IMG/VR virus record: IMGVR_UViG_3300045988_143356
Reading direction: 5' to 3' (one strand)
Length of the DNA: 64,000 bases
Source of the DNA: a virus
The translations under genes were made by a program, and so were the position numbers. The notes under the pieces are model-generated. The model saw nothing but the letters and a program-made list of their open reading frames with translations, did no database searches and was not told where the DNA came from. Below are positions 2,243 to 57,657 of the stretch, one piece after another (the first letter of the stretch is position 1; the number at the start of each line of letters is the position of its first letter).

Positions 2243-2925
2243 ACAGACGGAGCGCGCCTTACATAGTGCGTTTCTTCGACTACTGCTACAAGCGCGGTGT
2301 CTGGGACGCTTGCGACCACGGTGACGACTACGAGGTGCGGAGCTTCGTGGAGGAGCATTCCGTGTCGTGGAGGTTCGCCGTGCTCGGCGAGCCTGGCGAC
2401 CTTGACTGGGAGACCTGGCGCTTCCTTATGTACCGCTGGGCGAAGGAGCGCGGGATGAACGAGCTCGCGGAGTACTACATCTACGAGATAGTCCGTCAGA
2501 ACCATCTGTGGTATTTCCTTCCGTACTGCATGCGCTTCTATCTGAAAGGCATGGCAGACTGGCTGAAAAGGCCGGAGCCGGGCGGGATAGACCTGTTCAT
2601 GTCCACGCCGAGGGAGCGGTGGGTCACTGACGGGAGGCTGTCCGTCCGCATGGTCAACACGGACTACGTTTCGGACATGCACATGTTCGCCTTCGAGTAC
2701 CGCAGGGTGCCGGAGGACGACCGCGCGTTCAGCATCATAGCGTTCGAGCAGTACGCCCGCGCCATACACGACCTGACAAGGAAGTGGCGGGGCAGGCAGC
2801 AGTTCACATATCAAGTCCGGAAGGACCTGGAGGGGATCAAAAAGGAATCGTATGGAAGCGAAGAGTCAAGTATTAAACATGGACTGCCTGGAGTTCCTGA
2901 GGGAGCAGCCGGACAAGAGCTTTGA
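2173..2925 (+). CDS. Hypothetical protein (250 aa from ATG 2173; 219 aa if GTG 2266 is used)
   Basis: Long ORF with Trp/Tyr-rich, non-repetitive composition. No motif recognised. Antisense ORF 2125..2814 is treated as a shadow. Confidence 0.6.
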   Translation: MGFGQRRRPPEADRKLYAYKTPLNRRSAPYIVRFFDYCYKRGVWDACDHGDDYEVRSFVEEHSVSWRFAVLGEPGDLDWETWRFLMYRWAKERGMNELAEYYIYEIVRQNHLWYFLPYCMRFYLKGMADWLKRPEPGGIDLFMSTPRERWVTDGRLSVRMVNTDYVSDMHMFAFEYRRVPEDDRAFSIIAFEQYARAIHDLTRKWRGRQQFTYQVRKDLEGIKKESYGSEESSIKHGLPGVPEGAAGQEL

Positions 2926-3554
2926 CCTGGCGGTGGTCGATCCGCCTTACGGGGGAGCCAATGACCTCAGTATCAATGGGGGGGGGGCGTTTCGGCGAAA
3001 GGTTCGACCGCTACAAGAACGGGCGGGACATGGGCGACGAAGTACGGAAAAAAATCATAGGCTGGGACGTGGCACCCGGCGAGGAATATTTCAAGGAGCT
3101 TTTCCGTGTCTCGAAGAATCAGATAATCTGGGGTGGGAACTATTTCTCTCTCCCGCCGACAAGGTGCTTCCTTGTCTGGCGCAAGCTGACCATATCCGAG
3201 AGTTTCACGATGGCGATGGCGGAGTACGCGTGGACAAGCTTCAACGGCAACGCCAAGGTGTTCGAGTGCGCTCCGCAGGGCGCGTCGAAGGATCAGCGGT
3301 TCCACCCGACGCAGAAGCCCGTCGCGCTTTACACGTGGGTCTTCAAGCAGTTCGCCAAGCCGGGGGACAGGGTTCTGGACACGCATCTTGGGAGCGGATC
3401 GTCAAGGATAGCGGCGTACGGCCTGGACCTGGACTTCACCGGGATAGAGATAGACAAGGATTATTTCGACAAGTCGGTGGAGCGTTTCGAGCGCGTCTGT
3501 CACGGCGTGCAGGACATCGGCGGTCACAAGGTGGAGCAGGGCAGCCTGTTTTAG
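2852..3554 (+). CDS. DNA methyltransferase (beta-class N6A/N4C, DPPY type); reading frame broken at a G10 tract
   Basis: Frame of 2852 carries MDCLEFL...FDLAVVDPPYGG (motif IV). Frame of 2922 carries RVSKNQIIWGGNYF, FHPTQKPVAL and VLDTHLGSGSS (motif I). The two frames meet exactly at the G run 2978-2987. One fewer G gives one continuous ORF of about 233 aa. Confidence 0.8.
2978..2987 (+). repeat. Homopolymeric G10 tract inside the methyltransferase gene
   Basis: Counted directly: ...atcaat GGGGGGGGGG cgtttcgg... Confidence 0.95.
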
Positions 3555-3555
3555 G

Positions 3556-4059
3556 ATGGGGCTGGGCATAGACATAGCCGACAAGGCGCCGAAGCTTTTC
3601 CGCACGGGGCACGAGAATCCAGGGGAGTTCCGCCTGGATTATATCCTGCTTCCCTACGGCCTCTTCTACGAGAAGACTTCCTGCGTGTTGAAGGCCAAGA
3701 GGGGGGACCGGATAAGGCTTTTCAACGGCCCCGACTGCCGCATAATCAAGGCCGTGGTGGTCGAGGGTGACCTGTGCGATTTGCTTTGCCGGATGCGCTA
3801 TGGCGTGGCCTGGCGCATAGCGTACCAGAAGTGGCTTCTGAACGCCCGCATGGAGGGTTTCGGCAAGGATGTATTCTTTGAGGACAAGTGTATTTTTGTG
3901 GTTTTTGACAGGGATGACAACAAGGAGGAACAGAACACCGCGGCCGTCGCGCTGCGTGGAAACAAAAGTGTACCGGGTGCAGGCAAGAGGCGCGGACGCC
4001 CTGCTTCTGCCAAGAAACGCCGTGGAAGACGCGTTCTGGACAAGAGGGGCAGAGGTTGA
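3556..4059 (+). CDS. Hypothetical protein with basic AT-hook-like C-terminus
   Basis: 167 aa. C-terminal GKRRGRPASAKKRRGRR resembles an AT-hook (RGRP). Starts 2 nt after the methyltransferase stop. Confidence 0.6.
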   Translation: MGLGIDIADKAPKLFRTGHENPGEFRLDYILLPYGLFYEKTSCVLKAKRGDRIRLFNGPDCRIIKAVVVEGDLCDLLCRMRYGVAWRIAYQKWLLNARMEGFGKDVFFEDKCIFVVFDRDDNKEEQNTAAVALRGNKSVPGAGKRRGRPASAKKRRGRRVLDKRGRG

Positions 4060-7296: not shown

Positions 7297-8073
7297 ATGA
7301 CAATAAATGGTAAGGTTCACTGTTTCTTCGAGCAAAGCGGGACTTTCAAGAACGAGTTCAAGAAATTAGGGATAGATGCGGTGGATGTGGACATCCAAAA
7401 CAATTTCGGCCAGACCGACCATGTTGTCGATTTGTTCGCCGAGATTGAAACCGCTTATGGGGGGGGGCAATCAAAGGTTTGGGATTCGATTACTTGCGAT
7501 GATTTGATTATGGCGTTTTTCCCTTGCATATATTTTTCAGCATTATCGCAAATGGCTTTTTCATTTGGATGTGTAAATTATAGAAAGTTGTCAGACAAGG
7601 AAAAGGCTGATGCGATACTTGAAAGAAGCCATAACAGAGAATATTTTTTCGGGTTGGCGGTAAAGATGTTGACAGTGGCGAAAATGCGTGGATTGAGATT
7701 GATAATGGAGAACCCTTGGGCAGAACAAACTTTTTTGAAGGCAAACTTCGTGATGCCTCCGACATTAGTGGATAACAATCGTATGCTGCGAGGTGATTAC
7801 TTTGTGAAGCCTACGGCTTATTGGTTTATTAACTGCAAACCAACATACGGATTGACAGAACAAAAAGACAAAAAAGCAAAAACGATAAACAAGGCTAAGC
7901 CCGGAATCAGAGCTGGGATATGCTCCGAGGAGCGCAGCATGATAAGCCCCGACTACGCGAGGAACTTCATCTGCGACTTCATCCTTGGGAAAGAGCAGAA
8001 AGGGACACAACTTAATTTGTTTGAAAATGAGCAGGACAAACATACTGATAAACGATTCAGGCACCGACTTTAG
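7297..8073 (+). CDS. Divergent C5-cytosine DNA methyltransferase-like protein containing an in-frame G9 tract
   Basis: FFEQSGTF (motif I-like), MAFFPCIYFS (PC motif IV-like), LIMENPW (ENV motif VI-like), and C-terminal SPDYARNFI. Assignment is by motif order only. Confidence 0.5.
   Translation: MTINGKVHCFFEQSGTFKNEFKKLGIDAVDVDIQNNFGQTDHVVDLFAEIETAYGGGQSKVWDSITCDDLIMAFFPCIYFSALSQMAFSFGCVNYRKLSDKEKADAILERSHNREYFFGLAVKMLTVAKMRGLRLIMENPWAEQTFLKANFVMPPTLVDNNRMLRGDYFVKPTAYWFINCKPTYGLTEQKDKKAKTINKAKPGIRAGICSEERSMISPDYARNFICDFILGKEQKGTQLNLFENEQDKHTDKRFRHRL
7459..7467 (+). repeat. Homopolymeric G9 tract (encodes GGG, in frame) in the second methyltransferase-like gene
   Basis: Counted directly: ...gcttat GGGGGGGGG caatca... 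Confidence 0.95.
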
Positions 8074-8872: not shown

Positions 8873-8930
8873 TGTTTAACCCAGCCTGGGTTAGACGTGT
8901 GTATGAACATATTTGAGTAAAGAAAAAAGA

Positions 8931-8960: not shown

Positions 8961-10491
8961 AGCTCTGAATCGACTTTCCCGAAGCGTTGTTGTCAACCGG
9001 CGTCTTTTTCGGATTGGTCCCTTCCGTGACCGCCGTTGTGTTGTACTTTGCGGGGATTGAACTTTTAATTTCTAATTCATACTCCCATTCCTTCTGAATA
9101 GTCTCGTAGTCGTCGATGTGCGCCGTGCCGAGGTCCTCCATGGCGGCCTCCCTTGACTTTATCCTTGCGTACACTTGGTCGCACTCGTTTTTGACCAGCT
9201 CAGAGACGTTCTGCGGAAGCCAGATGTTCTGCCCGACTGACACCTTGAGGCTCTCGTACCCGGCGATGTCGCCCTGAACCTTGCCGACAAGCGCCTTGAA
9301 GACGTTGACCATCTTCTTCACACCCTTGAAGAAGTACGGCCATGTGTTCTTGCACCACTGAATCTCCGGCGCGAAAAGAATCTTTATCGTCGTGCTGGAG
9401 TCCGATCCGGCCTTGAGGATGTCCGGCTCGACGAAGACCGACATTGTAGTCCTTACGATGTTGTTCCACAGCGTGTTGTGGTGTATGTCGGCGATGTTGC
9501 TCGCATCAGGCGGTGCGAGGAACTTGCCGTCGGCGTTCCGTAGGGAGTCGGCCGTGCCCTTCACGCCGATGGTCTTTCCCGCCATCTTGGAAGGCGGCAG
9601 GTTGACGATCTTCTCCGACTTCAGGAAGAGAATCGGAAAAGCGCTGTTTTTCAGCTCCTCGCCGAGGTACGAGCTTGCGTTCTCCAGTGACTCGATGCTG
9701 AGCTGCGCCGGTCCGGTAGGGATGTCGTCTATACGGAAATAAGTGCACTGGCATCTTCCGGCACCGGCCTGGTTCGCCTTGCGCAGTATCAGCGTGTAGC
9801 CGTCCTCGCTGCGCTCCCTCCCCAAAGTTTCCTCTTCCGGCAACTGCATCCATGTCTCCACGGACTCGCAAGTGAAGATGTCCACGGCGTCGCGGTTCTC
9901 GTACTTGTACTTCCTCGCCACGCACTCGTGACCCTCCGCGTCAAGGAAAGGGAACAGCGTCGAGCCTTCCTCGTAGCCGTACACCTCGTACTCTATGCCG
10001 TCCTCGGTCTGGTACAGATAGATGGCTCCGTCTCCGGTGCGGAACACGCTTTTGACAAGAGCCGTCCACGCCGCCTCCTTCAAGCCGGTCATATCCATCT
10101 GCGAGCGGAGCACCTCGAAGCGTTCCTTGTCTTTCGTCTCGTTGGCCATCCAGAAGCCGTCTGACGCGAAGTGCGAGATCTTCTTGCCGATGATGCACTC
10201 CTGCAAGCCAAGGGCGACCGTCTCTACGTCGTCGTAGCCGGTTATCCTCCACTTCGTCTTGCCGTTGGCGTCCTTCTCGTCCGTCGGGCCGTAGATGGCT
10301 CGCTTCGACATATACGGCGAGTTGATGTTGTGCGCCGCCGGGGAAATCTCGTTGAGGAAATCGTCCTGGGTCATGAGCACCTGGTCACAGCCCCTCCCCG
10401 GCTTCATGTTCTGTCCTGCGGCGGTGTCCATCGCCACACGTCTTGTCCACTGCTTCTTCTTCGCAGGGTTGATGTAACTTGATACGTTCAT
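8959..10491 (-). CDS. Portal protein
   Basis: 510 aa, immediately downstream of the large terminase (4-nt overlap). Size and position are typical. No motif is diagnostic by eye. Confidence 0.7.
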   Translation of the reverse strand: MNVSSYINPAKKKQWTRRVAMDTAAGQNMKPGRGCDQVLMTQDDFLNEISPAAHNINSPYMSKRAIYGPTDEKDANGKTKWRITGYDDVETVALGLQECIIGKKISHFASDGFWMANETKDKERFEVLRSQMDMTGLKEAAWTALVKSVFRTGDGAIYLYQTEDGIEYEVYGYEEGSTLFPFLDAEGHECVARKYKYENRDAVDIFTCESVETWMQLPEEETLGRERSEDGYTLILRKANQAGAGRCQCTYFRIDDIPTGPAQLSIESLENASSYLGEELKNSAFPILFLKSEKIVNLPPSKMAGKTIGVKGTADSLRNADGKFLAPPDASNIADIHHNTLWNNIVRTTMSVFVEPDILKAGSDSSTTIKILFAPEIQWCKNTWPYFFKGVKKMVNVFKALVGKVQGDIAGYESLKVSVGQNIWLPQNVSELVKNECDQVYARIKSREAAMEDLGTAHIDDYETIQKEWEYELEIKSSIPAKYNTTAVTEGTNPKKTPVDNNASGKSIQS

Positions 10492-56379: not shown

Positions 56380-56634
56380 CTAAACGGTATATTCCCAGTT
56401 CGTCATTGCTGGCGGATCATCGTCCTCTATCGAATCCGACATAAAGACAACCATGTCCACTGTGACACCTACAAAATCCATGCCTTTGTAGTCATCGAAG
56501 CGGTAGTCCAGGACAAGTTTCCTTGCCTCCGCCGCGTCATTTGCCCAACAGTCGCACTCTATCGGCCTGTTGTAAACCTCGCCATTCCAGTCCTCGTGCT
56601 GGACAGTGGCGCAAACTTTGAATAACTTAATCAT
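56380..56634 (-). CDS. Hypothetical protein
   Basis: 84 aa ORF between the recombinase and the RNA locus. Confidence 0.55.
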   Translation of the reverse strand: MIKLFKVCATVQHEDWNGEVYNRPIECDCWANDAAEARKLVLDYRFDDYKGMDFVGVTVDMVVFMSDSIEDDDPPAMTNWEYTV

Positions 56635-57412
56635 TGCTTAACTGAATTATCTTTATCCACTTGCTTAATATCCCCTTGCTCAAGGGGCATCCGTTGCGCG
56701 TCCCGTACTTCTCCGGATGCTTCCGGTAAAGCTCCTGCGCGTCCGCAAGGATGTCAACCCTTGCCCTGTGCTTGAACACCTGCAACTCCACCCAGGCGAA
56801 GAGCGGCGACTCCTTGCGCCATTCAACGGCCTTGGCGGCGGCCGCCTCATTGGCGGCCACTATCGCCTGCCTTGGCATACATCCCCTCGGATTGCCAAGT
56901 TTCTTCACCCAGTGCCCAGACTTGGAGAAGAACCCTCCGTTCTCCGCTATCTGGCGCTGACGTTCCGCCAAGGCAAGACGTGTGTTTATCTGTATCATCT
57001 GCGCCTGACGCTCCCACACCGCGAACATTATCGTCAGCACGAACCTGTCACAGGTAGGAAGGTCGCAGATGACCACGTTACGCTCGCCCATGGCATCTAT
57101 GATATCCAACGCCTCGGACACGGATCTCAGACGGTCGCTCTTTGCTATGCACAGGACATAATCAGAAGCCTTGCAGTACCGTATGGCCTCCCATAACTGA
57201 CCGCACTCCTTCAACTTCGTCCCTGAATGGACGTCAGTGAAAACCGCCACCGGATCCTTTGCCATGAACATCTTCGCTATCGTCAACTGCGCCTCCAGGC
57301 CAAGGCCGGAGGCCTCCTGCTCCTGCGTGGATACCCTGCGCCACAAGACATAAGGCCTTGAATCGCCTATCGGCTTTATCTCTATCTTTTTTCTCTTTTT
57401 CCCTGTCCACAT
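56627..57412 (-). CDS. Small serine recombinase (resolvase/invertase family) with C-terminal HTH
   Basis: ORF trimmed to ATG 57412. YVLWRRVSTQEQEASGLGLEAQ (catalytic Ser motif), LCIAKSDRLRSVSEA, and C-terminal GCPLSKGILSKWIK. Confidence 0.75.
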   Translation of the reverse strand: MWTGKKRKKIEIKPIGDSRPYVLWRRVSTQEQEASGLGLEAQLTIAKMFMAKDPVAVFTDVHSGTKLKECGQLWEAIRYCKASDYVLCIAKSDRLRSVSEALDIIDAMGERNVVICDLPTCDRFVLTIMFAVWERQAQMIQINTRLALAERQRQIAENGGFFSKSGHWVKKLGNPRGCMPRQAIVAANEAAAAKAVEWRKESPLFAWVELQVFKHRARVDILADAQELYRKHPEKYGTRNGCPLSKGILSKWIKIIQLSND

Positions 57413-57657
57413 AACCGCAAAGACTCCAAAGTTGCCGGAAACCAATACGCATCGTGATCGAAGAACACGCAACGCCCGTACTTGTCGGGCAGCTGAAACG
57501 CAAGCACCTCATACGGCCCGAACGTGATTCCTGACGAGTTGGTGAACATCACCTTGTCGCCGATACTAAGGTCAACACCCGGAAGACTCTCGCAGAACTC
57601 TTCTTCCCTATACTGTCTCTTCCATTCCTGGAACTCTTTCTTGTAACTTTTCCCCAT
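57382..57657 (-). CDS. Hypothetical protein
   Basis: ORF 57382..57684 trimmed to ATG 57657 (MGKSYKKEF...). Confidence 0.5.
   Translation of the reverse strand: MGKSYKKEFQEWKRQYREEEFCESLPGVDLSIGDKVMFTNSSGITFGPYEVLAFQLPDKYGRCVFFDHDAYWFPATLESLRLCGQGKREKR

Follow-up and report, generated by a model that had tools for sequence, protein, structure and literature searches.

Methyltransferases that are switched by changes in repeat length are classic in Haemophilus, Neisseria and Helicobacter (the mod genes) and in Campylobacter (the polyG tract of the Type IIG gene cj0031). Members of the order Bacteroidales, the presumed host order of the phage considered here, mostly phase-vary by means of invertases and not by repeats. 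In phages, hypermutable polyG tracts have been described in the receptor-binding protein genes of Campylobacter Fletchervirus (Sorensen 2021), and in phage T2 an A-run makes the DNA-glucosyltransferase gene agt a contingency locus which toggles sensitivity to TgvAB versus McrA/BC (bioRxiv 10.1101/2025.10.21.683753). Bordetella phage BPP-1 possesses a methylase open reading frame (ORF) with a G stretch of variable length, noted in 2004 and proposed to control expression by frameshift (as cited in PMC4791379). Here we describe a DNA methyltransferase gene with two homopolymer tracts on the virus record IMGVR_UViG_3300045988_143356, of which a stretch of 64,000 nucleotides was analysed (the window). 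The gene is interpreted as a two-tract hypermutable contingency locus of a Bacteroidales phage, present in the window in its off state; on comparative sequence evidence we give this interpretation a probability of roughly 0.6.

The gene lies at positions 2852 to 3554 and is divided between two reading frames, referred to by the positions 2852 and 2922. Its parts are as follows.

2852..2977, plus strand: N-terminal part of the methyltransferase, in the frame of 2852, with an alternative start at ATG 2879 (MDCLEFL)
2939-2950, plus strand: catalytic motif IV, DPPY, within the N-terminal part and in the frame of 2852
2978..2987, plus strand: G10, the upstream slippery tract, encoding Gly-Gly-Gly, in frame as G9 and off as G10
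2988..3017, plus strand: motif 1, RFGERFDRYK, which shares the frame of 2922 with the C-terminal domain
3016..3054, plus strand: motif 2, RTGGTWATKYGKK, in the third frame, which is shifted by +1 from that of 2922
3048..3054, plus strand: A7, the downstream slippery tract; A8 would connect motif 2 with the C-terminal domain
3055..3554, plus strand: main, C-terminal portion of the methyltransferase, read in the frame of 2922, with IIGWD, RVSKNQIIWGGNYF, FHPTQKP and the S-adenosylmethionine (AdoMet) motif I LDTHLGSGSS; stop codon at 3552-3554

The frame of 2852 reads MEAKSQVLNMDCLEFL...DLAVVDPPYGGANDLSINGGG over 45 codons ahead of the frame break. The ATG at 2852 opens MEAKSQVLNMDCLEFLREQPDKSFDLAVVDPPYGGANDLSINGGG and is followed by 194 out-of-frame codons up to position 3571, giving an ORF of 239 amino acids, while the frame of 2922 reads RFGERFDRYK...RVSKNQIIWGGNYF...FHPTQKPVAL...LDTHLGSGSS...GIEID to its stop at 3554. 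When the tract was altered in silico, G9 or G12 resulted in a single ORF of 233/234 amino acids and G8 or G11 in a stop after 68-69 codons. A preliminary description of this DNA had placed the switch point of the split gene at the G10 of 2978-2987, had expected a continuous ORF of about 233 amino acids with G9 and had reported 45 N-terminal codons followed by more than 190 out-of-frame ones; all of this holds, the G9 form being 233 amino acids long and the codons counting 45 + 194. The A-run that it mentioned within the gene is also present, only as A7 ending at 3054 and not as A8 at 3048-3055. Among relatives, either ATG appears as the start, with proteins P0001 and P0003 at 233 amino acids and P0002 and P0004-6 at 224-227 amino acids.

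The protein repaired to G9 scores 52.9 bits against the Pfam family N6_N4_Mtase (PF01555, cut-off 26.7) and matches the DNA methyltransferase family phrog_67 with an E-value of 9e-40. Its motif order is that of the beta permutation, with DPPY located N-terminal to the FxGxG-type AdoMet motif I near the C-terminus. The earlier assignment as a DPPY DNA methyltransferase is thus borne out by both families and by motif order, and we read the gene as encoding an orphan DNA methyltransferase of the beta class, with a predicted N6-adenine or N4-cytosine activity. An AlphaFold model of P0002, a 92%-identical relative, has a mean predicted local distance difference test (pLDDT) score of 78 with a confident beta-class core, and its top Foldseek matches are CcrM (6pbd), M.BceJIV, MboIIA and RsrI (E-values 3e-8 to 1e-6). 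The loop of this model that extends from just after DPPYG to WD (residues 25-37 and 46-66) has a pLDDT below 50 and is predicted to be flexible, which would fit with a tolerance to replacement of its reading frame. A sequence search of solved structures aligned nothing beyond the DPPY region and the final ~70 residues and is therefore uninformative on the loop.

When the gene and its surroundings (7 kb) were compared with cultured-phage records at the nucleotide level, no match was obtained; relatives were therefore drawn from metagenome protein and DNA look-ups. The protein search gave relatives at 88-92% identity, some of full length and many starting just before the Gly-Gly-Gly, like the downstream ORF of the window. 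DNA was obtained from Logan, ENA and IMG/VR for 17 relatives of 86-98% nucleotide identity from independent metagenomes, mostly of pig and other gut. A comparison of tract length among related contigs had been proposed as a check in the preliminary description; among these 17, the length of the G-run ranges from 8 to 10 and that of the A-run from 7 to 9, and on and off alleles are both present:

G10/A7: window; split
G9/A7: L001, L002, L210, L211 and L212; intact, though in L001 only as regards the tracts
G9, linker in a single frame and lacking the A-run: L003, L209 and L213; intact
G8/A8: L083, L084 and L090; intact
G9/A8: L085, L086, L088 and L089; split
G10/A9: L082; split
G10 with no A-run: L087; split

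G9 is the modal length (12/17 relatives), and G10 occurs on three different linker backgrounds (window, L082 and L087). Mobile genes, namely IS605-family OrfB/TnpB and RRXRR/HNH endonuclease genes, are situated just upstream of the methyltransferase in some of the relatives (L082 6222-7466 and 8648-9916; L088 4020-4748; L089 255-983).

The same pattern extends over the wider family. The close relatives, IMG/VR and genome bins together supplied 117 homologues with a recognisable DPPY. The frame is broken in 34 of them, and in 28 of these a change of one or two bases in a G run of at least 6 adjoining the DPPY gives a full ORF, meaning that the remainder of those genes is intact. A second clade, with ~64% amino acid identity to the window, has one local sequence in five forms: G10/A7 (six contigs) and an interrupted tract, GGGTGGGGGA, are intact, G11/A7 and G9/A7 are split, and G9/A8 is intact via the other loop frame. 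In a third sub-clade, G7/A8 is intact while G7/A7 and G9/A7 are split.

Codon usage does not account for the tracts. G runs of at least 9 gave three pattern matches in the window against 0.32 expected from dinucleotide shuffles, and 1 of 100 shuffles reached three. Only two G runs longer than 6 occur in the 64 kb, each inside a predicted methyltransferase gene, the second of these being:

7297..8073, plus strand: second putative DNA methyltransferase (phrog_757, no Pfam match)

GGG is the rarest Gly codon in the long ORFs of the window (14.8%), from which the probability of GGG GGG GGG given Gly-Gly-Gly is 0.003; of ten other Gly-Gly-Gly tripeptides in the window, the only one encoded entirely by GGG is in the second methyltransferase. 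AAA is likewise the minor Lys codon, at 29%. The locus thus has a tract inside an ORF in excess of composition, a tract length that differs between conserved flanks, and an ORF that is intact or broken according to that length, as is expected of a contingency locus.

The 60 nucleotides between the G- and A-runs are dual-coded: one frame conserves RFGxRFDRY, the +1 frame RTGGxWAxKYGKK. In homologues with a single-frame loop both motifs follow one another, as ...RFGGRFxKY-x(2-5)-RTGGTWAxKYGK-IxxWD. In the window, as in many other members, the 36 nucleotides preceding the A-run read NGRDMGDEVRKK in the frame of 2922, where they vary between lineages, and RTGGTWATKYGKK when shifted by +1. For 19 non-redundant sequences of this type, the entropy of this motif-2 segment by codon position of the C-terminal frame (that of 2922) is 1.09/0.30/0.38, versus 0.43/0.26/1.22 for the next 90 nucleotides, the wobble position being displaced by one, and the pairwise amino acid identity of the segment is 0.78 in the +1 frame versus 0.46 in the C-terminal frame. 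The Arg that opens motif 2 is retained through the synonymous +1-frame codons AGA, CGG, AGG and CGT. Motif 1 (RFGxxFDxY, 16 non-redundant sequences) has normal periodicity in its own frame, which is the C-terminal frame (0.51/0.42/1.17). Each frame having a codon periodicity of its own, the adjacent motifs are under protein-level selection in different frames, and by this measure purifying selection is shown to act in both frames of the loop. In translation, G9/A7 alleles have a loop with motif 1 only and G8/A8 alleles a loop with motif 2 only, and alleles with the one or the other loop are found intact in three separate clades.

The loop that follows DPPY in homologues seems to be made up of two to four copies of a module GG-x-[FW]-x-x-[KR]-Y (GGCKGWFxKY, RFGGRFDRY, RTGGTWAxKY), examples being L040, L061 and L069 and the proteins P0034, P0036 and P0050. 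Further G or C runs are present between loop modules in L007 (G10, G6 and G9), L031 (G8 and G10) and L074 (G12 and C7).

In the mechanism that we propose, the two slippage-prone homopolymers (2978-2987 and 3048-3054) flank a flexible loop after the catalytic DPPY and their lengths would set its frame. G9/A7 would give a full-length enzyme with motif 1 (RFGxRFDRY) in its loop, and G8/A8 a full-length enzyme with motif 2 (RTGGxWAxKYGKK) there instead. With G10/A7 or G9/A8 the DPPY part would be cut off from the rest, so that no enzyme would be made. Slippage at both runs would then shift a phage lineage between three conditions, one off and two on, presumably at high and reversible rates, and both isoforms would be active. 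The window allele, as part of this same interpretation and at the same probability, would be an off-phase allele that a single G deletion could turn on. The benefit would be one of bet-hedging, with methylated progeny evading restriction-modification and unmethylated progeny evading modification-dependent (Type IV) defences; by analogy with T2 agt, such hedging between defences appears the most plausible selective reason. That the arrangement is a three-state switch throughout this large phage family, yielding no enzyme, a motif-1 enzyme or a motif-2 enzyme with both isoforms under selection, is a more tentative proposal which we consider possible but somewhat doubtful. The two isoforms may differ in activity or in their engagement of DNA.

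A mutational hotspot without an adaptive switch would also produce broken tracts: if the gene were dispensable in many hosts its homopolymers would break first, and the off alleles would be young decaying pseudogenes. The proportion of split homologues (~30%) would be in keeping with this, as would several features which weigh against the contingency-locus interpretation. Near-identical genome pairs differing at the tract alone were looked for and none was found, identical pairs agreeing in state; differences in state occur only between lineages diverged by at least ~1.8-2.5%, and G10 is constant across a clade diverged by ~5%. Tract states are thus stable over small divergences, and switching may be modest or selection may keep one state. 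In addition, L001 (97% identical, G9) has an extra A at 10441-10445 (AAGCCC-A-GTCGCG), at FHPTQKP and corresponding to ~3320 in the window, which moves the gene into the same open frame and results in the 230-amino acid P0026. Lying outside any homopolymer, this lesion is either true decay or error, and it hints at some plain decay. Decay could also account for the homologue of Bacteroides phage LoVEphage (OY731444, and the same in OY725593), which is annotated as two ORFs due to a C9 run in 'WDKSPP' (L207 1666-1674) where C8 would restore the frame; the gene of BI-TP1, 95% identical in nucleotides, has GACAAGAAACCACCTGGC at this site, with no run, and is intact. Nevertheless, no other lesion is present in 28 of the 34 split genes, the tracts stay pure despite a codon bias against GGG and AAA and diverged surroundings, and interrupted, 'locked' tracts are rare (L009 and L045). 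The coding periodicity in both loop frames further requires that both configurations be translated often enough for selection, and we consider decay at a mere hotspot unlikely.

The preliminary description had left the choice between a switch and an assembly error. In the latter case the phage would truly be G9, and the G10 of the window contig a homopolymer miscall; G9 is indeed the modal length in relatives, and long G runs are error-prone on several platforms. However, G10 recurs in two other independent lineages (L082 and L087), and contig pairs that come from different runs or pipelines and are diverged by no more than 0.06% agree in state, off states included (L088/L089 and L085/L086). 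The tracts at 2978 and 3048 are also the only long homopolymers (at least 7) of the window conserved in relatives, and both are length-variable. At the positions of the A9 at 98-106, inside the ORF 63-605, and of the A8 at 619-626, relatives have A1-A4 and no homopolymer. Conserved 6-base runs hold their length, with the sole exception of the A6 at 8923, which is A7 in L087.

The second methyltransferase provides a further control. It has a G9 of its own (7459-7467) that is in frame, reads AYGGGQ and is G9 in both relatives aligning there (L001 and L087). Among 80 IMG/VR homologues of this second family, the Gly-Gly site is a run of G8-G11 in 23 and of G7 in two, and none of the 23 is split or frameshifted, versus 10 of 33 with G8-G11 runs in the family of the window gene (Fisher p = 0.003, or 0.007 without duplicates). 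One family being spared, and G8 being paired with a compensating A8 in the other, this is not what random miscalls would give, and a sequencing or assembly error is rated as quite improbable. The relatives favour a length-variable switch, though not the simple on/off switch at one tract first envisaged, the A-run varying as well and the loop being read in two frames.

Recoding would leave the 'off' alleles only down-tuned, whether through transcriptional slippage on the G or A runs or through ribosomes shifting by -1 on the A-run. In its favour, the A7 in the motif-2 frame forms a perfect X XXY YYZ heptamer (GG A AAA AAA TC) at which a -1 slip gives ...KYGKK-IIGWD, many A7 genomes conserve motif 2 although it is out of frame there, and RNA polymerase is well known to slip on long homopolymers. 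Recoding is nevertheless very improbable, as folding against shuffles found no stable, stimulatory RNA structure downstream of the A-run (minimum free energy -16.1 kcal/mol, z = +0.39), no slippery site lies between motifs 1 and 2, such that no single event reads both, and A8 DNA alleles with a compensating G-run exist and suffice for selection on motif 2.

The frame entered through G10 (2988-3571) remains open over 188 codons, ends 17 nucleotides past the normal stop and overlaps the start of the next ORF (3556). This frame had been thought to stay open only because of high GC content, an explanation that does not hold: it has no stops where 5.7 are expected, and just 2 of 2000 synonymous-codon shuffles left it fully open. 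Depleted stops in the -1 frame are also seen in other genes of the window. As a general feature of the family, an overlapping gene was rejected, the frame being open in the close clade only (0-1 stops, setting aside L001 with its own frameshift) and having 2-22 stops in distant homologues. The open off-state frame may spare downstream genes from polarity, or it may be inherited chance.

The window is a genome of a tailed phage, with genes for a terminase large subunit, a portal and a major head protein. The methyltransferase gene is placed in the early/replication module, and its neighbours belong to replication and recombination, with a YqaJ-like exonuclease upstream and a helicase downstream, and the neighbourhood in relatives also includes a primase and a VRR-NUC nuclease. 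The portal protein matches only phages of Parabacteroides, Bacteroides and Phocaeicola together with two unclassified human-faecal phage records (24-30% at the amino acid level), and for the methyltransferase the top-ranking cultured phages are those of Bacteroides. A scan of genome collections gave metagenome bins of Muribaculaceae, Duncaniella and Paludibacteraceae but also of Clostridia, at no more than 73% identity, and with bin taxonomy so mixed it leaves the host unsettled. The matches to cultured phages are the better hint, and they suggest that the host is likely a member of the Bacteroidales. Elsewhere in the window, the following ORF may represent another variation system, or an integration or resolution function:

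56627-57472, minus strand: ORF weakly matching DNA invertase / serine recombinase (phrog_125, E-value 2e-12)

If the contingency-locus interpretation is correct, repeat-driven phase variation of DNA methylation would no longer be limited to a few pathogens but would take in phages of gut Bacteroidales and their relatives, as a family-wide design and not as an oddity. It would explain why some 30% of the genes appear 'broken' when viromes are assembled and are labelled pseudogenes or fragments by annotation pipelines. One phage burst could hold methylated and unmethylated genomes, which would matter for host range, for escape both from restriction and from modification-dependent defence, and for the interpretation of phage methylomes. 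The dual-frame loop would be a compact natural case of two protein versions in overlapping frames chosen by tract length and, should the three-state proposal also be true, homopolymer slippage would diversify the structure of an enzyme and not its expression alone.

In comparison with solved beta-class enzymes, the window methyltransferase has in common with CcrM, M.BceJIV, M.MboIIA, M.RsrI and M.PvuII the order of DPPY followed by FxGxG and the PF01555 domain, and the model of its close relative P0002 resembles the first four in fold. However, the solved structures have no counterpart of the loop that follows DPPY in this family (RFGGRFDRY, RTGGTWAxKY). As in the bacterial mod genes and cj0031, an intragenic repeat sets the frame of a methyltransferase, and on and off alleles are found among close relatives. 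Those genes are components of Type III, I or IIG restriction-modification systems, whereas the enzyme described here is a small, phage-borne orphan of the beta class; its locus has two tracts and two alternative in-frame products, and no regulon (phasevarion) is claimed for it. Fletchervirus polyG genes and T2 agt are similar in having hypermutable homopolymers within phage ORFs that give mixed progeny, as is proposed here, and agt is also a DNA-modification gene in which switching trades one defence against another. For both of these, rates have been measured, while for the present locus the evidence is comparative, and it differs from them in gene family, in host group and in its dual-frame loop. 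The BPP-1 gene likewise has a variable tract inside a phage methylase ORF, a likeness drawn from its description only; this is a passing remark on three related phages, which reports no second tract or alternative isoform. No description of the present family, or of repeat-switched methyltransferases in gut or Bacteroidales phages, was found in the literature. Repeat-switched methyltransferases as a kind are thus already known, and what is new here is the spread of the feature through a whole family, the second tract, and the dual-coded loop with its two in-frame products.

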